In this document: positions 463-29,533 of the stretch, piece after piece | How the letters are laid out: every line of letters starts with the position of its first letter | Position numbering within the stretch: position 1 is the first letter of the stretch | Sequence record: PZ179884.1 | Length of the DNA stretch: 44,035 bases | Direction: 5' to 3' (one strand) | DNA from: a phage | The notes under the pieces: generated by a model | What the model saw: only the letters and a program-made list of their open reading frames with translations | What the model was told of the DNA's origin: nothing | Database searches by the model: none | Translations under genes and position numbers: made by a program

Positions 463-493
463 AAGGCCCCATAATGGGGCCTTAGTTTTATTT
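463..493. terminator. Bidirectional rho-independent terminator between convergent genes
   Basis: Stem AAGGCCCC / GGGGCCTT with 5-nt loop, T-run on plus strand and A-run upstream (T-run on minus strand). Confidence 0.7.
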
Positions 494-1009
494 AACTCTC
501 GCCGGCATTAACACCATAAATGCCGTGCTTGAAAATGATATTTTGCATCCTCTGGTTTGGTCCTGGAAATCGAAACGGGCAATTTCATTTTTGTATGCCT
601 TAGAAATCTTGTGCGCGTCTGCCAAATAACGCAGAGTGAACCCTATGCTATCAACTGAACCAGGTGTAATGCGCGCCACGCGTCGCCAGTCAGGAAATCT
701 CCCATCTACAACATCAATCGGAAGTGTGCATATAAGCGCACTACTATCGTCATAGAAAGAAACACTACCGTTGTCGTGGTCTACCTCCGCGTAGTTAAAT
801 TTAGAGGGCTCCCTACCTTTGATGTCTATTAGAACTCCCGTTTCGACGTTTGTTTTCACATTGTCGCAGAACAATCTATGCCCATCCGTAGACACTATCA
901 ATCCTTCAGGGTCTATGTAAAAAGCGTTCAAATAGTAGCGCACATCATTTTTCGCCCTGCAGATTTTCGCCCCTACATACGCAGGGAAAGTAATTACTGT
1001 AGTAACCAT
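488..1009 (-). CDS. Truncated beta sliding clamp (DnaN) homolog: domain II plus a shortened C-terminal segment (173 aa)
   Basis: Motifs DVRYYLN, TDGHRL, VDGRFPDWRRV and C-terminal MPARV match E. coli DnaN DVRYYLNG, ATDGHRLA, VDGRFPDYRRV, MPMRL as recalled from memory; RBS GAGGAG 7 nt upstream of ATG. Confidence 0.6.
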   Translation of the reverse strand: MVTTVITFPAYVGAKICRAKNDVRYYLNAFYIDPEGLIVSTDGHRLFCDNVKTNVETGVLIDIKGREPSKFNYAEVDHDNGSVSFYDDSSALICTLPIDVVDGRFPDWRRVARITPGSVDSIGFTLRYLADAHKISKAYKNEIARFDFQDQTRGCKISFSSTAFMVLMPARVK

Positions 1010-1037
1010 TTTTCATCTCCTCGTTTCGATGTAATGA

Positions 1038-1066
1038 ATAGTACCCTATTATGTTGGTGTCTGCAA
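1038..1066 (-). promoter_or_regulatory. Class B promoter (minus strand: TTGCAG -17- TACTAT) driving the DnaN-like gene
   Basis: -35/-10 hexamers with 17-nt spacer; spacer and flank share ATAATAGGGTACTATTCA with four other loci. Confidence 0.55.
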
Positions 1067-1963: not shown

Positions 1964-2665
1964 ATGAATCGTTTTTTACGTTATCCGTTCCAGGAAGAAG
2001 CTGGAGCAGAAGATAAAGCTGGTGGCGGTGACGCTCCTAAAATGTTCACCGCTGAAGAAGTTCAGGCGCTGATTGAGAAAGAAGTTGCCGGGCTTAAGGC
2101 TAATCAGGAAGCATTGTTGGCGGAGAAGAAAGAAGCCGCTCGCAAAGCAAAAGAGGCCGAAGAAGAACGGCAGCGCGCGCACCAGGAGGCGTTAAAAGCC
2201 GCTGGTAAGATGGATGAGTTCGAAAAGACGATTCGTAGCCAGTACGACCCTGTGTTAGCCGAGAAAGACGGTCGCATCTCCAGAATGGCAGAGCGTATCC
2301 TCGGCAGCGAACGTAAAGCGGTGCTAGGCTCTTTCGCGGGTGACTTTATTACCCCAGAAGCAGTGGACATTCTTGCGCCGTTCGTTAAGACTGAGTTCGA
2401 AGGCGATGATGTGGTTACTAAGTTTGTTGGTGCAGACGGTAACGTAATCACGACTGACCCGGAACAGTTCCGCAAATACCTGCGCGAACACAAGGCGTTT
2501 TCGCATTTGATCAAAGCAAATGCAGCTTCCGGCGGCGGGGCTTCCGGTAGCAAAGGCGGCGGGGCCGCACCAGCGTTTAAAGACATGAGTGAAGCAGAGC
2601 GTTTAGCCCTGTATAAATCGAACCCTGCCGAATTTGAACGGCAACTTAAAGCCCTGAGGAAATAA
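1964..2665 (+). CDS. Scaffolding protein
   Basis: ATG at 1964 in frame with track ORF 1910-2665 (TTG start); Ala/Glu/Lys-rich helical protein immediately upstream of major capsid gene. Confidence 0.55.
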   Translation: MNRFLRYPFQEEAGAEDKAGGGDAPKMFTAEEVQALIEKEVAGLKANQEALLAEKKEAARKAKEAEEERQRAHQEALKAAGKMDEFEKTIRSQYDPVLAEKDGRISRMAERILGSERKAVLGSFAGDFITPEAVDILAPFVKTEFEGDDVVTKFVGADGNVITTDPEQFRKYLREHKAFSHLIKANAASGGGASGSKGGGAAPAFKDMSEAERLALYKSNPAEFERQLKALRK

Positions 2666-2667
2666 TA

Positions 2668-3717
2668 ATGGCAATTACCACTATCGGCGATATCGTAACT
2701 GGCAACATCCCGGTCCTGGCGTCTTATATGACCGAGGACCCGGTAGAAAAAACCGCGTTCTTCCAGTCTGGTATTCTGACCCCGACCCCGTACGCTGCCG
2801 AGATTGCCCGCGGCCCGTCCAACGTCGCTAATATTCCTTTCTGGAAAGCGATTGATACCTCTATCGAGCCGAACTACTCGAACGACGTATACCAGGACAT
2901 CGCCACCCCGCGTAACGTGCAGACCGGCGAGATGATGGCGCGCGTTGCGTACCTGAACGAAGGTTTCGGTCAGGCGGATTTGACCGTTGAACTGACCAGC
3001 CAGAACCCGCTGCAATCCGTAGCGTCACGTCTGGATAACTTCTGGCAGCGTCAGGCACAACGCCGTCTGATTGCTACCGCGCTCGGGCTGTACAATGACA
3101 ACGTAGCCGCTACCGACGCATACCACGAGCAGAATGACATGGTAATCGACGTGTCTGCTACTCTGGGCTTCGATGCGGGCGCGTTCATCGACGCTACCCA
3201 GACTATGGGCGATGCTCTGATGGGCAACGGCGGTGAAGTGCTGGGGGCTATCGCGATGCATAGCTTCGTTTATGCGCAGGCACGTAAGCAGCAGCTTATC
3301 GACTTCATCCGTGACGCGGACAACAACACCATGTTCGCCACCTACCAGGGCTACCGCGTGATTGTTGACGACAGCATGACCGTAGTCGGCACTGGCCCGA
3401 CCCGTAAGTTCATCTCCATCATCTTCGGCAACGGCGCTATCGGTTACGGTGAAGGTTCTCCGTCCAACCCGCTGGAATACGAGCGCGAAGCGTCCCGCGG
3501 CAACGGCGGCGGCGTTGAAACCCTGTGGACCCGTAAGACCTGGTTGCTACATCCGTTTGGCTACAGCTTCACCAGCGCGGTAATCACCGGCAACGGCACC
3601 GAGACTGTAGCCCGCTCTGCTTCCTGGCAGGACCTGGCGAATGCCTCCAACTGGAACCGTGTTGTCGACCGTAAGCATGTGCCTATTGCCTTCCTGGTAA
3701 CTGGTGTAGGGTCTTAA
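2668..3717 (+). CDS. Major capsid protein (349 aa)
   Basis: ORF track; position after scaffold; size and composition typical of HK97-fold capsid; strong terminator follows. Confidence 0.7.
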   Translation: MAITTIGDIVTGNIPVLASYMTEDPVEKTAFFQSGILTPTPYAAEIARGPSNVANIPFWKAIDTSIEPNYSNDVYQDIATPRNVQTGEMMARVAYLNEGFGQADLTVELTSQNPLQSVASRLDNFWQRQAQRRLIATALGLYNDNVAATDAYHEQNDMVIDVSATLGFDAGAFIDATQTMGDALMGNGGEVLGAIAMHSFVYAQARKQQLIDFIRDADNNTMFATYQGYRVIVDDSMTVVGTGPTRKFISIIFGNGAIGYGEGSPSNPLEYEREASRGNGGGVETLWTRKTWLLHPFGYSFTSAVITGNGTETVARSASWQDLANASNWNRVVDRKHVPIAFLVTGVGS

Positions 3718-3734
3718 GGTTAAGCTATAATCGA

Positions 3735-3761
3735 GAGGGACTTCGGTCCCTCTTTTCATTT
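3735..3761 (+). terminator. Rho-independent terminator after major capsid gene
   Basis: Stem GAGGGAC / GTCCCTC, loop TTCG, followed by TTTTCATTT. Confidence 0.7.
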
Positions 3762-3778
3762 ACTAAGAGGATTCCTAA

Positions 3779-4120
3779 ATGGCAGACGTATTGAAGCGAC
3801 GCATCACCGGCGTCTCCGCTGACGCCCCGGGCGCTAAGATCGACATGGCGACTATTTCACCTGCGTCTTTCTCTTCCGCGCTGGCGGCTACTACCGCAGT
3901 GACCATAGGTGAAACTATGACGCTGACCGTAACGGTAGCCGGCGGTCTGGAGCCATATTCTTATCAGTGGTACAAGAACAATAACGCTATCGCCGGGGCT
4001 ACCGCGGCTACCTATGCTAAAGCGTCAACCACTACCGCCGATTCTGGTACGTATAAAGTGGTTGTTCACGATGTGTATGGTAATATTATCTCCAGCAGCA
4101 CCGTAGCAACTGTGTCTTAA
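3779..4120 (+). CDS. Ig-like domain protein, likely capsid decoration (113 aa)
   Basis: Ig signature SYQWYKNN...GTYKVVVHD, paralogous to the C-terminus of the 1-459 product. Confidence 0.55.
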   Translation: MADVLKRRITGVSADAPGAKIDMATISPASFSSALAATTAVTIGETMTLTVTVAGGLEPYSYQWYKNNNAIAGATAATYAKASTTTADSGTYKVVVHDVYGNIISSSTVATVS

Positions 4121-5956: not shown

Positions 5957-6453
5957 GTTTCGCGCTTGATGTCTCTAAGTTCGTGGAAAAGGCGAAGAAG
6001 AACCCTGAGAAGGTGATGCGTCAGGTGTCTATCAAGCTGTTTTCCGCTATCATAAAGGCGAGTCCGGTAGATACAGGCCGGTTCCGAATGAACTGGATGG
6101 CCTCTGGCAGTACCCCCGCTTCCGGTACAAGCCGCGGTACTGACCCTAGCGGGGCGAACGCAATAAGTGCCATGGTTTCTACCGTGTCTGGTTTACCCGA
6201 CTGGAGCGAGTTCACCCTGACAAATAATCTGCCGTATGCGGAAGTTATAGAGTTCGGGGGTTACGCTACCGGCTTCCATGGCCCTAAGCGTCCTTCTAAC
6301 TTAGGCTCTAAATTTGTTGGCCCATTGAGGCCGAAAGCGCCCAGCAGAACAACCACAGACGGATATTCCCTTCAGGCTCCGCAAGGTGTTGTCCGGGTTA
6401 ACGTTCAGCGATTCAATAAACTGCTCGAAGAAGAAGCGAGGAAGTATAAATAA
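5953..6453 (+). CDS. HK97 gp10-like neck / tail completion protein
   Basis: Motif VDTGRFRMNW resembles the DTGxLR signature of the HK97 gp10 family (recalled). Confidence 0.5.
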   Translation: MSFALDVSKFVEKAKKNPEKVMRQVSIKLFSAIIKASPVDTGRFRMNWMASGSTPASGTSRGTDPSGANAISAMVSTVSGLPDWSEFTLTNNLPYAEVIEFGGYATGFHGPKRPSNLGSKFVGPLRPKAPSRTTTDGYSLQAPQGVVRVNVQRFNKLLEEEARKYK

Positions 6454-6866
6454 TGGGCTACTTTGAGGACTTAACAAAAGCGTTCGATGTTCCGCTGGTA
6501 GCCTTCGGAACCGCCAACGGCATCAAGGTTGCGCTTGAAAACATCGACGCGCCGACGTCAACCGATACGCCGTATCTGGCGAGTTACATGCTACTGGCAG
6601 ATACCGAGCAGGCGGATTTGTTCTTCACTGAGCAACGCTCTGGTATTTATCAGGTAGACATTAACTACGCATCGGTGAAAGGTAGCGCGCCAATCAATAA
6701 AATGGCAGACTTACTTAACACGGCGTTTAAAGCAGGTAAGTCATTTTCGCGTAACGACATCTGCGCCGAGGTTCAATCGGTTAGCCTGGGGCCGCTGATT
6801 GTAGAAAACGGATGGGCCAAACGGCCATTGTCAATTAACTTTATAGCATTCACCAAGAGGCTGTGA
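6453..6866 (+). CDS. Tail component, possibly tail terminator (137 aa)
   Basis: ORF track; position immediately before major tail protein. Confidence 0.4.
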   Translation: MGYFEDLTKAFDVPLVAFGTANGIKVALENIDAPTSTDTPYLASYMLLADTEQADLFFTEQRSGIYQVDINYASVKGSAPINKMADLLNTAFKAGKSFSRNDICAEVQSVSLGPLIVENGWAKRPLSINFIAFTKRL

Positions 6867-6868
6867 AT

Positions 6869-8035
6869 ATGGCTACAACTCCTTTTAAGGGCGCGAATAC
6901 CGCGCAATTCTATGTGGCGGAAGTGACCCCGGGTGTAACACCGACTAACCCGGTCTGGTCACCATTACGTAACACGGGCGGTGTTCCTGCCATTACCCGT
7001 GACACACTGACCTCCAACGAACTCGACGGCAGCCGTGAAACTACATCCATCCGCACCGGTAACAAACAGGTTAGCGGTGAATACGCAATTGAGCTTAGCT
7101 CTAAAAGCCAGGATGACTGGTTGGCAGGTGCTTTAGGCTCTACGTGGCAATCCGGTGTTTCTCTGCCAGGGCTATCGATCACCGTCGCGCCCGCGGGCAA
7201 GACGTTCACACGCGCTACCGGCAGTTTTATCACTGACGGAGTTGGGGTAGGCGACCTGATTGCGTTTACCGACTTAACAGGCGATAACGCAAAACCATTT
7301 ATTGTTACCGCAGTAACGGCTACCGTTGTTACTGGTGCAGGCATCCAACACACCCTGACCACCGAGACAAAAACTAGTAAGGCTAAAACTGGCGACACGC
7401 TGGAAACCGGTAACACATGTAAGACGTTCTCTATTCTCACCTGGTACAAAGGACAGTGCGGCGGGACTGACGCATACACACTAACCAAAGGTGTGGAAGT
7501 TTCCGGTTTCACCGTTGAGCAGGCCGTTAACGCGATGGTTACAGGTAGCTTCCCGTTCATCGGGCGCAGCCAGGAGATTCTTACTACGCCGCCGTCTGGT
7601 TCCAACTTCTCCTCTGTCACGTTTGGTGATGAGCCATTCTCCTCGGTTGACGTTTCTGTGTTTGACGGCTATACGCCGTTGCGTTGCGACAGCCTGACCA
7701 TCACCAACGACAACAGCGCATCCGCGCAGTTCGAACTCGGCAACACTAACGTAGCGTTTGTAGAACGTAGCCGCGCGGCTAACACCTTCTCCATCTCCGG
7801 CAAGCTGTATGACATGGCGATGATTCAGAAGTTTATCAACGAGCAGCAGGTAGAGATTAACTCTATTCTGGCGGGGGTAAACGGGGCTATGTCTTTCAGT
7901 TTGAAACGTGCGGAGCTTACGGCAGTTACCCCAGAGATTGGCGGACCTGAGTCAATCACTCAGTCCATTGAAGGCCAGGCTACTGGCAACCAGTACCAGT
8001 CGTCTATTGTTATTCAGCGTATCACCTACGCATAA
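6869..8035 (+). CDS. Major tail protein
   Basis: ATG at 6869 with AAGAGG RBS (track start 6863 is GTG); Thr/Ser/Gly-rich 389 aa protein ahead of the tail module; strong terminator follows. Confidence 0.55.
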   Translation: MATTPFKGANTAQFYVAEVTPGVTPTNPVWSPLRNTGGVPAITRDTLTSNELDGSRETTSIRTGNKQVSGEYAIELSSKSQDDWLAGALGSTWQSGVSLPGLSITVAPAGKTFTRATGSFITDGVGVGDLIAFTDLTGDNAKPFIVTAVTATVVTGAGIQHTLTTETKTSKAKTGDTLETGNTCKTFSILTWYKGQCGGTDAYTLTKGVEVSGFTVEQAVNAMVTGSFPFIGRSQEILTTPPSGSNFSSVTFGDEPFSSVDVSVFDGYTPLRCDSLTITNDNSASAQFELGNTNVAFVERSRAANTFSISGKLYDMAMIQKFINEQQVEINSILAGVNGAMSFSLKRAELTAVTPEIGGPESITQSIEGQATGNQYQSSIVIQRITYA

Positions 8036-8040
8036 AACTA

Positions 8041-8063
8041 AGGCCCCGAAAGGGGCCTTTTTT
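8041..8063. terminator. Bidirectional rho-independent terminator
   Basis: Stem AGGCCCC / GGGGCCT with GAAA loop and T6 run; A-run on the other side. Confidence 0.75.
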
Positions 8064-8064
8064 A

Positions 8065-8295
8065 TTACTCATCAATGTTACTCCTGTACTCCCGTAACTT
8101 TTCCAGACTTTCAATTGCTTCCGCTAAGTCGGTTCCGGTGTCCTTGTGTCCACGTAAACCCATGCACAATAGCTTCTTCAATGCGTGCTGTAACGCCGGG
8201 TCGCGGATGTCGAAAGCGCGGAGCACATCATAAACGTCTACTGTCATAGTGCTGCCGTGAGTATTTGTCATTGTGCGGTTGTATTTTGAAGTCAT
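8065..8295 (-). CDS. Hypothetical protein (76 aa), last gene of antisense island
   Basis: ORF track; start overlaps stop of upstream gene. Confidence 0.45.
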   Translation of the reverse strand: MTSKYNRTMTNTHGSTMTVDVYDVLRAFDIRDPALQHALKKLLCMGLRGHKDTGTDLAEAIESLEKLREYRSNIDE

Positions 8296-9422
8296 CCCAG
8301 CATCTCCGGTGAAATAGTTAAACGTGCGACCTCACCATATTCGGCGCTATAAGTAATTACGTTTGCACTACGGCCTGACATCCACCCGCCGCGTGAGGCG
8401 TAGGCATCTTTAGCCGCTAAAGTGCGGTGTTGTTCAACAATCATGTTACGGCTTTCTACAATCTTCTGATGGTGCAGGTGGCCTACGTGGGCGTAGCTGT
8501 AAACACTCTCACCGAACGCTTTGCGGAACTTGGCAATCATAACCGGTTCGATAGCATCGAATCGCGCCTTATGCCCGTGGTGAAAGAACAACGTCGTTTT
8601 TCCGTGTTGCACCATCTTGTAAACATCCGGCGACGTATCGACAATCACTCGGCTGTCGTTCGAATATAAAACTGTGAACATTTCAGCCAGCCATACAGAG
8701 CCTACAGGGTCATGGTTCCCCTGTACGATAAGCAAGCGAACATTTTTATGTTTAACCAGTGCCATATCTACAACACGGCGTACCATACGAATCATGTAGC
8801 GGACGAGTTTCTGGTAGCGAGTGTCTGCGTCCAACACGTGACGCGACTCAGGTGTAACGGCATCCAGACTATCGAAGTGCGCGAAATCACCCAGCAGGTT
8901 AATAACTCCTGTTCCTGCATCCGGTGCTTTCTGAAACGCCGCGTCGAACCAACGAGAGAACAGGTCTTCCGCAATCTTTATATCCCAGTCGTCGCCGCTC
9001 TCGTCGGCCCAGGCAAGCATACCGAGATGGAAATCAGATACCGTGTAAAGATTGAGTAGCTTGTCGTCGCGTTTGGCTCGAGTCGCTTTAGCCGGCGCAA
9101 CTGGCGTAATCTCTGACTTCATGCCTTCAATCACGGCTTTCATCAACTCGACCTGACGTTCAGCGTCGGTGTCTGTCTTAACCCATTGCAACTTAGTATT
9201 GCCGAACTCGTCTACCAGAGACGACGTCCCTTTAATCTTGTAGCCGTCTGGGACAAGGTGGCTAACGTCACGCCCGTGGCCTACACCTTTCTTAGCCAGC
9301 TTCGCTTTACGGATACGAATAACTCGGTCTGAGATGCCGTATTTACGGGCGATGTCTACATTCTTCATCCCGGCGTTCAATTCTTCCTGTAACTGTTCGT
9401 CGGTTATTTTCTTCTGAGCCAT
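8292..9422 (-). CDS. N-terminal HTH domain fused to calcineurin-like metallophosphoesterase (376 aa)
   Basis: HTH-like NVDIARKYGISDRVIRIRK; phosphoesterase motifs SDFHLG, GDFAHFD, GNHD, HHGH, GHLHH in canonical order; RBS GAGGAA. Confidence 0.6.
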   Translation of the reverse strand: MAQKKITDEQLQEELNAGMKNVDIARKYGISDRVIRIRKAKLAKKGVGHGRDVSHLVPDGYKIKGTSSLVDEFGNTKLQWVKTDTDAERQVELMKAVIEGMKSEITPVAPAKATRAKRDDKLLNLYTVSDFHLGMLAWADESGDDWDIKIAEDLFSRWFDAAFQKAPDAGTGVINLLGDFAHFDSLDAVTPESRHVLDADTRYQKLVRYMIRMVRRVVDMALVKHKNVRLLIVQGNHDPVGSVWLAEMFTVLYSNDSRVIVDTSPDVYKMVQHGKTTLFFHHGHKARFDAIEPVMIAKFRKAFGESVYSYAHVGHLHHQKIVESRNMIVEQHRTLAAKDAYASRGGWMSGRSANVITYSAEYGEVARLTISPEMLG

Positions 9423-9487
9423 GCTTACTTCCTCGTGTTTAGGATTTGTCCTATTTAACCACAGTGGATTCCTTTAAATAAAGGCAA

Positions 9488-9814
9488 CTATTTACTTTCT
9501 GCGCCTATCGCCCACCCTGTCATTACCATTTGCAGACGGGTGGCTGTCAGTAGGCTATAGAAAGCATCTCCGTTTTTCTCTACCGAACGTATCACTGTGT
9601 AGGTTACGGCCTGCGGGGGTAGGCCCGATTTACCAACCTCCACGGCGGCCTCACACTCGCGAACTGTAGAGTCCTTGAACGCCTTTACAATAGTAGGGTC
9701 GGCTTTCTCGAGCACACCAGAAGTCATAAGAACAGATTCACTAAATACCTGTTCGCACGGGGCTCCAAAAGTAGCAAAAGACATAAACCCCAGAGCTAAT
9801 ACTAATTTACGCAT
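9488..9814 (-). CDS. Secreted / periplasmic protein (108 aa)
   Basis: N-terminal signal peptide MRKLVLALGFMSFATFGA; RBS GAGGG 8 nt upstream. Confidence 0.5.
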   Translation of the reverse strand: MRKLVLALGFMSFATFGAPCEQVFSESVLMTSGVLEKADPTIVKAFKDSTVRECEAAVEVGKSGLPPQAVTYTVIRSVEKNGDAFYSLLTATRLQMVMTGWAIGAESK

Positions 9815-9842
9815 AATTATACCCTCAGTAAGTTACTGGTGA

Positions 9843-9871
9843 ATAGTACCCTATTATATTGGGGCGCGCAA
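9843..9871 (-). promoter_or_regulatory. Class B promoter (minus strand: TTGCGC -17- TACTAT) driving the antisense island
   Basis: Spacer CCCCAATATAATAGGG is near-identical to the class B promoter at 32856-32884. Confidence 0.55.
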
Positions 9872-9978
9872 GTAGTGTGTTAGAATAAGTTTGCGCCTAG
9901 TGTCGCACACGAAAAGCGGGTGGTTCCCGCCGGGCGCATTAACCATAACCAGTAACCTCTTAACCAAAGGACTAAAGA

Positions 9979-10395
9979 ATGAAACTTTCTGATTTCTATT
10001 TTGCCGACCGCCACGCCGCCGGTACTAAAATGCCTATCCTTCTGCCGAGTGGTAAAGACTCCGGTGAATGGTTGCAGGTCATCGGCCCCGATTGTGACGC
10101 TGGTGTTCGTGCAGGCCGCGCCTACACAACGGCAATTCGACGCCTTACGGAAGAACTTGCGCCCTTAGATAAAGAGTGTGAGGCACTGAATAACTGGGCG
10201 CGCTATAACGATGAGAAGGGCTGGCGGGTGATGGACCTGAACAAGCAGCTTGCCGTGGAAATTGTCACCGGTTGGTCATTCGACGAACCATTCAGCAAAG
10301 AGGCGCTGGCTAACCTGTTCGACCAGTACAGTGGACTGGCTGAGGCGGTAGTTAAGCACCACACCGACAGCCGCGAGAAACTATCGGAAAAGTAA
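9979..10395 (+). CDS. Tail assembly chaperone (G-like)
   Basis: Position directly upstream of tape measure gene; ends at a candidate slippery site. Confidence 0.5.
   Translation: MKLSDFYFADRHAAGTKMPILLPSGKDSGEWLQVIGPDCDAGVRAGRAYTTAIRRLTEELAPLDKECEALNNWARYNDEKGWRVMDLNKQLAVEIVTGWSFDEPFSKEALANLFDQYSGLAEAVVKHHTDSREKLSEK
10386..10392 (+). other. Candidate -1 programmed frameshift site G_GAA_AAG
   Basis: Heptamer sits immediately before the stop codon (10393-10395); the -1 frame is open from 10356 to 10757. Confidence 0.4.
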
Positions 10396-10757
10396 AAGCG
10401 CTGTATGAATTTGCGCAATGGTGTTTTGTTGACCGCCACAAACGTAAGCAATTCGACGACATCGCGGCAGGGCACCAGGCGGCTTTGATTGCAATGGGCG
10501 TGATTAAAGAACCGCAGATGAAAGAAACGACGGGGCCTGAATGCCCCGTTTCTCTTATCGACGTGTTCGATAAATACCGTGCCATTAAATTCCTACAGCG
10601 CGAAACAGATGATACTATCGTTATAATCCCGCGCGATGCGCTCAAATGGCAAGATTTGGCTGCGTTTCGCGATGTCGCCGGTTACGGCATAAGTTTGTTC
10701 GAAGCCGAGGTTATCATGGGCTTAGACGGAATATTTGAGGGCAGAGAAGATGGCTGA
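10392..10757 (+). CDS. -1 frame extension of the tail assembly chaperone (GT-like fusion product)
   Basis: Track ORF 10485-10757 (TTG start) lies in the -1 frame, has no convincing own start, and ends overlapping the tape measure start. Confidence 0.4.
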   Translation, partial: VKALYEFAQWCFVDRHKRKQFDDIAAGHQAALIAMGVIKEPQMKETTGPECPVSLIDVFDKYRAIKFLQRETDDTIVIIPRDALKWQDLAAFRDVAGYGISLFEAEVIMGLDGIFEGREDG

Positions 10758-22625: not shown

Positions 22626-22910
22626 CTAACTATAATAGTTCGCTATTAGGTCGTCAACCTGTTTGAACGAACCAACGACAAAAACATTTGCACCACGTTT
22701 ACGCATCCGCTCGTGCTCTCGTATCTGGTGCGGGTCTGGCTTCGTGTTTTCGTCTTTCTTAACCTCGACGAACCAGACGATGCCGCCAGGGAGAATTACC
22801 AGCAGGTCGGGAGCGCCGGAACGCCCCTCGTAGGAAAGTTTACGAACGAGGCCCCCAAGGGCCTCAAATCGCTCTTTTGCGTATTTCTGGATGCGGCCCT
22901 CTTTAGTCAT
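22626..22910 (-). CDS. VRR-NUC domain nuclease (95 aa)
   Basis: PDLLVILPGGIVWFVEVKK motif; start taken at internal ATG 22910, coupled (ATGA) to an upstream micro-ORF; track ORF runs to 23126. Confidence 0.55.
   Translation of the reverse strand: MTKEGRIQKYAKERFEALGGLVRKLSYEGRSGAPDLLVILPGGIVWFVEVKKDENTKPDPHQIREHERMRKRGANVFVVGSFKQVDDLIANYYS
22629..22657 (-). promoter_or_regulatory. Class A promoter (minus strand: TTGACG -17- TATAGT)
   Basis: Near-consensus hexamers; spacer ends ...AATAGCGAACTAT like two other loci. Confidence 0.55.
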
Positions 22911-23059
22911 GACCGCAGCATCCAGGTAAGGAAAGCCCCGCCTAGAAGGGCAACACCGGCAAACTGAAAGAACAGGCCGTAACAGAACATAGCAGCTATT
23001 CCCGCACCGAGTAACAGTGCGAGCATGGTTACTATCGACCCGAATACAAACATTCTCAT
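22907..23059 (-). CDS. Small membrane protein (50 aa, 2 TM), not in ORF track
   Basis: Translated by hand; stop overlaps VRR-NUC ATG; RBS GAGGGG upstream. Confidence 0.3.
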   Translation of the reverse strand: MRMFVFGSIVTMLALLLGAGIAAMFCYGLFFQFAGVALLGGAFLTWMLRS

Positions 23060-23145
23060 AACACGCACCCCTCACGTTTGGTATGCTCAATACCGCAGCG
23101 CGGGCAGATTCGACAGTCTTCTTCATAAAACCAGTAGATTTTCAT
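23056..23145 (-). CDS. Micro-ORF (29 aa), Cys-rich
   Basis: MKIYWFYEEDCRICPRCGIEHTKREGCVL; ATGA overlaps on both sides. Confidence 0.2.
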   Translation of the reverse strand: MKIYWFYEEDCRICPRCGIEHTKREGCVL

Positions 23146-26331: not shown

Positions 26332-26360
26332 ACTATAATAGCTAACTATTCAGGTGTCAA
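26332..26360 (-). promoter_or_regulatory. Class A promoter (minus strand: TTGACA -17- TATAGT)
   Basis: Consensus -35; spacer CCTGAATAGTTAGCTAT. Confidence 0.6.
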
Positions 26361-26549
26361 ATAAAATTTCGCAATACGGACTATGTTCTCGAAATCATTC
26401 ATATCAACGGGTTCGAATTCATCCTCCACATGGTTGTATCGCACCATCGTGCCGTTCAGGAACGTAAACGATTCCGAATGGATATAACCACCCCAGCGCC
26501 ATATCATCACAAAATCTTTATCTGTGGGCATTTCATTTACTTGAATCAT
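26346..26549 (-). CDS. Hypothetical protein (67 aa)
   Basis: ORF track. Confidence 0.4.
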   Translation of the reverse strand: MIQVNEMPTDKDFVMIWRWGGYIHSESFTFLNGTMVRYNHVEDEFEPVDMNDFENIVRIAKFYLTPE

Positions 26550-29224: not shown

Positions 29225-29253
29225 ACTATAATAGCGAACTATTCACATGTCAA
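29225..29253 (-). promoter_or_regulatory. Class A promoter (minus strand: TTGACA -17- TATAGT)
   Basis: Consensus -35; spacer TGTGAATAGTTCGCTAT. Confidence 0.6.
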
Positions 29254-29257
29254 TGGG

Positions 29258-29286
29258 CTTTTCTAAAATAATTAATATGGTACTAT
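29258..29286 (+). promoter_or_regulatory. Divergent plus-strand promoter-like element with TACTAT -10 and weak -35
   Basis: Shares TACTATTCAC with class B; -35 region overlaps the minus-strand class A -35. Confidence 0.3.
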
Positions 29287-29317: not shown

Positions 29318-29533
29318 ATGCAACCATCTGAACTAGGCATCCGTGTAGAACAACGCCGCAAAGAACTCGGCATCTCCCAGCGCCGTTTGGCGGCCCTGAC
29401 CGGCGTTTCCCAGGGCGCGATTAACCAACTGGCACTTGGAGTAACTCAGGACGTCCGCCCGGCAACGCTGTTCAAACTGGCGGAAGTTCTGGAAGTAGAC
29501 GCCAAGTGGCTGGCGTTAGGTGAAGGGGCTTAA
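29318..29533 (+). CDS. Cro/C1-type HTH (XRE family) regulator (71 aa)
   Basis: HTH region ELGISQRRLAALTGVSQGAINQL; RBS AAGGAG. Confidence 0.65.
   Translation: MQPSELGIRVEQRRKELGISQRRLAALTGVSQGAINQLALGVTQDVRPATLFKLAEVLEVDAKWLALGEGA

Follow-up and report, generated by a model that had tools for sequence, protein, structure and literature searches.

A three-gene island lies in antisense orientation (positions 8,065 to 9,871) within the tail module of a phage whose DNA, the 44,035 nucleotides of sequence record PZ179884.1, is referred to here as the window. Its central product is a 376-aa protein, in which an N-terminal helix-turn-helix (HTH) is fused to a metallophosphoesterase (MPE) core. On balance, we are inclined to regard this HTH-MPE as a DNA-targeted, Mn-dependent nuclease, which has an operator-controlled promoter of its own, is not co-expressed with the tail genes and is accompanied by exchangeable flanking cargo. 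Judged by its sequence, the source phage is a Kagunavirus of E. coli. The 4.2-kb stretch around the island is 98.5% identical to Escherichia phage GertrudWoker_Bas73 and matches 285 phage records, nearly all of them from Kagunavirus or Jerseyvirus (subfamily Guernseyvirinae). The members of these two genera are small siphoviruses of 41-44 kb, which depend on O-antigen or capsule (PMC11990801). The island genes have already been deposited and are annotated by homology in dozens of these relatives.

The 376-aa protein matches phrog_704 ("DNA repair exonuclease") over its full length (E-value 1.5e-162, residues 3-375 on profile positions 1-389 of 390). The family comprises 2,043 phage records and 4,567 representative clusters (at 50% identity), nearly all of 370-420 aa, and identity to the protein ranges from 100% in Bas75 over 73% in Dhillonvirus and 44% over 376 aa in ST16 of phage T1 to 31% in Vibrio phages. 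Since the protein scores below the Pfam gathering thresholds of PF00149 (22.1 versus 27 bits) and PF12850 (17.0 versus 21.5 bits), and since only 17 and 12 of 63 homologues, respectively, match these profiles, the family is a divergent branch of the superfamily. The 376-aa protein is modelled with the fold of calcineurin-like metallophosphoesterases. All five MPE motifs (DxH, GD, GNH[D/E], H and GHxH) are present as D130/H132, G178-D179, N236-H237-D238, H282 and G314-H315-x-H317. Among the 63 homologues, which share 32-50% identity, D130, H132, G178, D179, N236, H237, H282, G314 and H317 are invariant and H315 is conserved in at least 90%. Because the full set of MPE ligands is conserved, the protein is, as far as its sequence tells, almost certainly an active enzyme.

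The AlphaFold model (predicted local distance difference test score, pLDDT, 90.6) consists of a three-helix HTH (residues 8-44), a low-confidence linker, a beta-hairpin with a helix (61-102) and the MPE core (119-376, i.e. up to the C-terminus). Homologues match many HTH families, among them Sigma70_r4_2 (1.5e-9), GerE (2.4e-8) and HTH_1, which indicates that the HTH fusion is a family-wide trait. The fusion of an HTH to a complete five-motif MPE core, as proposed in an earlier note on this DNA, is thus borne out by the homologue alignment, the HTH matches and the model. The closest folds of the model are the nucleases PolD-DP1, Mre11 and SbcD. Searching PDB with the MPE sequence by itself or with a profile built from 63 sequences gave only marginal matches, and those of MPE type were exclusively nucleases. 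These similarities favour the nuclease branch, though not decisively. Together with the family-wide HTH, they are also the reason why, of the three roles considered in the earlier note (degradation of nucleotide signals, DNA-end processing and superinfection exclusion), DNA-end processing by a nuclease would fit the modelled HTH-MPE best. We infer both the nuclease activity and the DNA substrate from this structural kinship. We found no functional study of the phrog_704/T1 ST16 family in the literature, where the family name rests on homology, and Kagunavirus, Guernseyvirinae and Drexlerviridae are linked to the HTH-MPE there by genome annotation only.

Comparison with characterized systems helps to delimit the family. 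The T1 ST16/phrog_704 proteins of Drexlerviridae, Dhillonvirus and Guernseyvirinae share the HTH-hairpin-MPE architecture and the length of the 376-aa protein, but their genes differ in position: that of T1 belongs to the early/DNA-metabolism region and that of Dhillonvirus comes after the lysis genes, in contrast to the antisense location within the tail module found here. In contrast to Mre11/SbcD, the model has no C-terminal capping domain but carries the N-terminal HTH instead, and the sequence similarity is insignificant. The large non-structural ORFs (open reading frames), which are a part of the ORFs of the window, were scanned against PHROG profiles and include Pol A, a helicase-primase, a gp2.5-like single-stranded DNA-binding protein, a 413-aa exonuclease, a methylase and resolvases; no Rad50/SbcC partner was detected among them. 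Lacking the capping domain and such a partner among the scanned ORFs, the HTH-MPE is not an Mre11/SbcD orthologue. The DP1 small subunit of archaeal PolD, a 3'-5' proofreading exonuclease, differs in that it works with DP2, of which there is no counterpart here. The polymerase of the phage belongs to family A (phrog_17) and has its own exonuclease region, and T1-type relatives are not known to have a polymerase gene. The nuclease MPE from Pseudomonas putida showed no close structural or sequence similarity to the 376-aa protein. A functional precedent is Gp48 of mycobacteriophage A10ZJ24, an early-expressed five-motif MPE with phosphodiesterase and DNase activity that degrades host DNA (PMC12287305). 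Any kinship to the HTH-MPE would be at the superfamily level only, and since its mutated residues D10, D41 and H175 (PMC12287305) place the motifs from the very N-terminus onwards, Gp48 appears to be devoid of an N-terminal HTH extension.

The island consists of three minus-strand ORFs, with the major tail gene on one side and the tail chaperone genes on the other. Gene 1 (9488..9814, minus strand) encodes a 108-aa protein, gene 2 (8292..9422, minus strand) the HTH-MPE and gene 3 (8065..8295, minus strand) a 76-aa conserved domain protein. All three are preceded by a Shine-Dalgarno sequence, and the stop codon of gene 2 overlaps the start codon of gene 3 (ATGA), which suggests translational coupling. 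The ORFs of this three-gene unit, which extends from its promoter to a bidirectional terminator, were found exactly as they had been described before. Eight loci from Kagunavirus and Jerseyvirus were examined; in each of them the island occupies the same tail junction with the same operator-like dyad, and the HTH-MPE gene is the sole constant gene. The idea that the island was inserted in the source phage is therefore not tenable; its presence in eight of eight loci indicates that it is ancestral to both genera. Conservation among relatives together with a virion or assembly role had been named as evidence against the roles proposed for the island. The conservation is indeed there, whereas the island is not known to have a function in the virion or in its assembly.

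The genes around the HTH-MPE gene are variable. The island of NTEC3 has acquired an HNH endonuclease, that of fFiEco02 holds an extra 66-aa ORF and those of Jerseyvirus have an added antirepressor-like gene. In Cornellvirus VSiP, two different antisense genes are found at the major tail/chaperone junction and the MPE unit is located antisense in the head module, and a distant relative, a Vibrio phage, has nothing between its major tail and chaperone genes, which directly abut. These two arrangements suggest that the junction is a cargo slot of Guernseyvirinae and that the MPE unit resides at different sites depending on the lineage. Among Salmonella phages, the tail protein was retrieved from 359, the MPE from 373 and the 76-aa gene from 371; these counts indicate that the MPE and 76-aa genes are near-universal in the Salmonella phages.

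Some further observations concern the history of the MPE gene. Jerseyviruses (for instance SHWT1 versus ZCSE9) possess two MPE alleles with about 85% and about 54% identity to the 376-aa protein, which, together with the 73% identical Dhillonvirus protein (JLBYU60), points to allelic replacement and gene exchange between phage groups. HNH homing endonuclease genes are located directly 3' of the MPE gene in T1 (6207-6689), a Vibrio phage (6241-6750) and NTEC3 (3009-3479; all positions within the fetched loci). Since these three lineages are unrelated, the MPE gene or its 3' flank might be a recurrent homing target. A distant MPE homologue with 26% identity is encoded by the N4-like Roseovarius Plymouth podovirus 1 (2950-4110 of the fetched locus). 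It is annotated as "structural protein" yet lies among nucleotide-metabolism genes, and it may be packaged into the virion there.

Transcription of the island probably starts at a sigma-70-type promoter (9843..9871, minus strand) with the -35 hexamer TTGCGC (9871-9866), a 17-nt spacer and the -10 hexamer TACTAT (9848-9843), the latter being overlapped by a 14-bp operator-like dyad, AATAG-N4-CTATT (9842-9855). The bare hexamer pattern TTGCGC-17-TACTAT is not more frequent in the window than expected by chance. The promoter lies, however, in a motif of about 33 nt, which is common to the sites 1066 (minus), 32856 (plus) and 33879 (plus) and the extended core of which, AATAGGNTACTATTCA, occurs seven times (0.01 expected). 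The dyad is the invariant part of this motif, with seven exact copies as compared to 0.04 expected. Each of the eight Kagunavirus and Jerseyvirus loci has one dyad immediately upstream of its island, whatever gene comes next; the longer promoter pattern has an exact match in only the five Kagunavirus loci among these eight. The dyad is absent from the T1, Vibrio, Dhillonvirus and Cornellvirus loci compared, though those phages retain the HTH-MPE. A scanner proposed TTCACC-16-TATAAT (9843-9816) as an alternative promoter; it was rejected, as its transcription start would fall inside gene 1 and as it is not conserved in the other copies of the motif.

Further copies of the dyad precede a gene for a RusA-like resolvase and small genes of a divergent control region. 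The promoter class, which had been thought to be shared beyond the island, is thus real on sequence grounds, the motif and the dyad being far above chance and in the same position in relatives, and it would constitute an operator-controlled regulon of non-structural genes. The gene for the RusA-like Holliday junction resolvase (488-1066, minus strand; 173 aa, phrog_3007) is antisense to its plus-strand neighbours and driven by the promoter/dyad motif of the island (1035-1066), which makes it a second, single-gene antisense unit of the regulon. Tandem dyads (an exact one at 29230 and one with a single mismatch at 29274) precede a 71-aa Cro/CI-like HTH ORF (29318-29533, plus strand), which sits antisense between minus-strand replication genes. 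Its product is a candidate for an autoregulated repressor of this promoter class. Two other exact dyads are found at 22634-22647, inside or at the end of a 166-aa endonuclease ORF (22626-23126, minus strand), and at 26337-26350, just upstream of small plus-strand ORFs near 26354-26487.

Since the dyad recurs at the RusA-like, control-region and Cro-like genes, the operon is probably expressed with non-structural genes and apart from the tail genes. RNA-seq of the Kagunavirus K1B4, the only transcript data that we came across, is consistent with this: the first gene of its island has its peak together with the genes of the polymerase and the methylase, and the flanking tail genes fall in a different class (PMC12645636). 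The time course of that study is coarse and its text makes no report of the MPE gene (PMC12645636). Early expression of the island, as had been assumed, is plausible by promoter sharing and by analogy to K1B4, which is another phage. At its other end, the island shares a bidirectional intrinsic terminator (8040..8059) with the major tail gene, which enters it on the plus strand. It forms an 8-bp GC-rich hairpin with U/T tracts on both strands (folding free energies -17.8 and -17.7 kcal/mol, z-scores -3.5 and -4.3), and the terminator previously placed at 8041-8063 could be located accordingly, with a stable hairpin and T-runs in both directions.

Gene 1 occupies a variable slot. Its 108-aa product was found in Guernseyvirinae only, namely in 99 phage records and, in a set of 5.8 billion proteins, in 22 clusters. 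The N-terminus consists of MRK followed by LVLALGFMSFATFG, with a hydrophobic core of 14 residues and candidate cleavage sites after A14 or G17, where small residues are found at -3/-1. The protein exhibits neither a lipobox nor a 19-residue stretch of transmembrane grade. By rule, this N-terminus fits a Sec-type signal peptide, as predicted earlier, and its pattern is kept in the orthologues. In the AlphaFold2 model (pLDDT 75.5), residues 1-15 are disordered and the mature part is a helical bundle. C20 and C54 are invariant in the orthologues. A fold search with the model revealed no meaningful structural relative, and the sole PHROG match is phrog_14165, to which no function is assigned there. 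Neither the fold search nor the PHROG search, in which no match to phrog_1039/Imm appeared, supports the idea of a Spackle-like or Imm-like protein. In Shelanagig, F12013 and K1B4, slot 1 is taken by a T4 Imm-like membrane protein of about 60 aa, and that of Shelanagig matches phrog_1039 at 2.3e-23. What the 108-aa protein has in common with the T4 exclusion proteins Imm and Spackle is its small size, the predicted targeting to the envelope and a slot that relatives fill with Imm-like genes. By this positional swap, its sole support, superinfection exclusion is plausible for gene 1, but not for the other two genes.

The product of gene 3, formerly listed simply as a small protein, is small indeed but turned out to be a conserved domain, which 774 phage records contain either as a protein of its own or at the C-terminus of proteins of 180-250 aa. 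Its motif is KY.R..DVYDVL.AF..PA.QHALKKLLC.G.RGHKD..DL.EAI.S. Neither the 76-aa protein nor 25 of its relatives gave a Pfam or NCBIfam match; a supposed resemblance to DUF3310 went undetected in the searches and is not claimed here. In K1H, MirsaeidiM_Esher4 and K1B4, slot 3 contains two genes instead of the 76-aa gene, one for a HAD phosphatase of the PNKP type (Pfam 6.7e-20) and one for a P-loop kinase (phrog_139). We also considered that the 76-aa ORF is a deletion remnant of the ATP-binding gene of K1H. This was rejected, since BLASTP gave no alignment, and the domain has a conserved N-terminus of its own (K4, Y5) and stands alone in many phages. In Salmonella phage SE1 (Nonagvirus), a 251-aa protein with this domain at its C-terminus (2419-3174 of the fetched locus) is encoded inside a 7-deazaguanine cluster (QueE, QueD, FolE, amidotransferase). 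By analogy, the context of this DNA-modification cluster hints at a DNA- or nucleotide-related role of the domain.

Against a DNA nuclease, several other functions have to be weighed. The slot-3 genes of K1H, MirsaeidiM_Esher4 and K1B4, which directly follow the MPE gene in the same operon, raise the question of whether the MPE is a 2',3'-cyclic phosphodiesterase or 3'-phosphatase, which mends RNA or DNA ends cut by host toxins or anticodon nucleases, together with the kinase/phosphatase where present. In bacterial Pnkp, the phosphoesterase module is in fact an MPE. However, the kinase/phosphatase pair is absent from this phage and from most relatives, no such pair lies less than 5 kb from the MPE gene in T1, and the ORFs scanned in the window include no ligase. 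Moreover, the HAD phosphatase would render an MPE phosphatase redundant, the HTH points to duplex DNA and the best fold matches are DNA nucleases. We consider end healing by the MPE unlikely. Hydrolysis of the cyclic nucleotides or oligonucleotides by which CBASS, Pycsar, Thoeris or type III CRISPR systems signal would be in line with the cyclic-nucleotide phosphodiesterases in the MPE superfamily, with Rv0805 being among the top five Foldseek matches and with a promoter type that suggests expression outside the late programme. A DNA-binding domain and the status as a near-universal core gene in more than 2,000 phages do not fit such a counter-defence function. PADLOC gave no match for any of the three island proteins, nor was there any defence-type Pfam or NCBIfam match. 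The degradation of nucleotide signals, as put forward in the earlier note, finds no specific support by PADLOC, Pfam or PHROG links and is very unlikely in our opinion.

It is also conceivable that the HTH-MPE is a regulator, which binds the dyad or another phage site and controls the initiation of transcription or replication, the esterase being a sensor or a site-specific nickase. The homologue from Shelanagig is annotated as "HTH-type regulator/nuclease SbcD", the HTH resembles regulators of the LuxR/sigma-r4 type and the island promoter has the operator-like dyad common to the regulon. However, this task would fall more naturally to the dedicated 71-aa Cro/CI-like protein, the gene of which is preceded by two dyads, the T1, Vibrio, Dhillonvirus and Cornellvirus loci combine a retained HTH-MPE with a missing dyad, and the invariant catalytic residues argue for a working enzyme, so that we would give a regulatory role a small chance. 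Finally, the three genes might form an obligate system, for instance a toxic nuclease that the 76-aa protein modulates or confers immunity to, with the secreted protein as a sensor. The ATGA overlap and the co-occurrence of the MPE and 76-aa genes in about 400 Guernseyvirinae genomes could be understood in this way. On the other hand, close relatives swap each flanking gene independently while the MPE gene stays, and the annotation of T1 names no homologue of the two small genes less than 5 kb from the MPE gene. In addition, the Drexlerviridae phage phiKP26 has its 76-aa homologue in a group of small genes at the start of the genome, where the 4.5 kb examined contain no MPE gene, and further phages encode the 76-aa domain as a fusion to unrelated N-terminal regions. 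An obligate three-gene system is highly improbable for these reasons.

For the DNA-targeted nuclease that we prefer, the following course of events can be proposed. A self-contained cargo operon in a fixed antisense tail slot of Kagunavirus and Jerseyvirus would be transcribed from a host-type (sigma-70-like) promoter, gated by the 14-bp dyad, and thereby be expressed alongside the early or DNA-metabolism genes and apart from the flanking tail genes. The binuclear MPE, flexibly linked to its HTH, would act as a Mn2+-dependent DNA phosphodiesterase of the Mre11/SbcD/PolD-DP1 structural branch. The HTH itself might bring the MPE to DNA, so that no Rad50-type ATPase would be needed. Its likely job would be to process or degrade DNA, i.e. 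the host chromosome, DNA ends or intermediates of recombination and replication. The upstream cargo would be an envelope-directed small protein (Sec-secreted here, T4 Imm-like elsewhere), probably serving superinfection exclusion, and the downstream cargo the small conserved domain protein or, in other relatives, a split polynucleotide 3'-phosphatase and kinase.

The island is flanked by the gene of the major tail (tube) protein (6863..8035, plus strand) and that of the tail assembly chaperone (9979..10395, plus strand), for which a frameshift-extended product to about 10757 is annotated in relatives. The chaperone ORFs 9979-10395 and 10485-10757 correspond to a programmed-frameshift pair, the joined product of which is annotated in K1H, fFiEco02 and Shelanagig. 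A search for a plus-strand promoter of the chaperone and tape-measure genes in 9815-9978 yielded as best candidate only the weak TTGGGG-16-TAGAAT (8 of 12 positions). A hairpin is present at 9915-9931, between the island promoter and the chaperone gene. The downstream tail genes may rely on transcripts that pass the terminator and run on through the antisense island, and transcription would then be convergent.

Going further, one could speculate by analogy to the unrelated mycobacteriophage MPE that a Rad50-independent HTH-MPE nuclease is a core component of T1-, Dhillonvirus- and Jersey-like small siphoviruses, which serves an early attack on host DNA and has been moved in Guernseyvirinae to an operator-controlled antisense slot with exchangeable exclusion and end-healing genes. 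This wider scenario is tentative and, as a whole, rather doubtful. If true, degradation of the chromosome would silence host defences and feed phage replication. Host-DNA breakdown by T1 is known from old genetic observations, and an attack on host DNA by the HTH-MPE would account for it. The family is present in more than 2,000 sequenced phages, many of which are candidates for phage therapy directed at E. coli, Salmonella and Klebsiella, and to learn whether it serves host-DNA degradation, phage-DNA processing or counter-defence would close a gap in what is understood about small siphoviruses. Moreover, the tail/chaperone junction is a tolerated and separately regulated cargo site, which is useful for the engineering of Kagunavirus chassis phages and is a place to seek new superinfection-exclusion genes.

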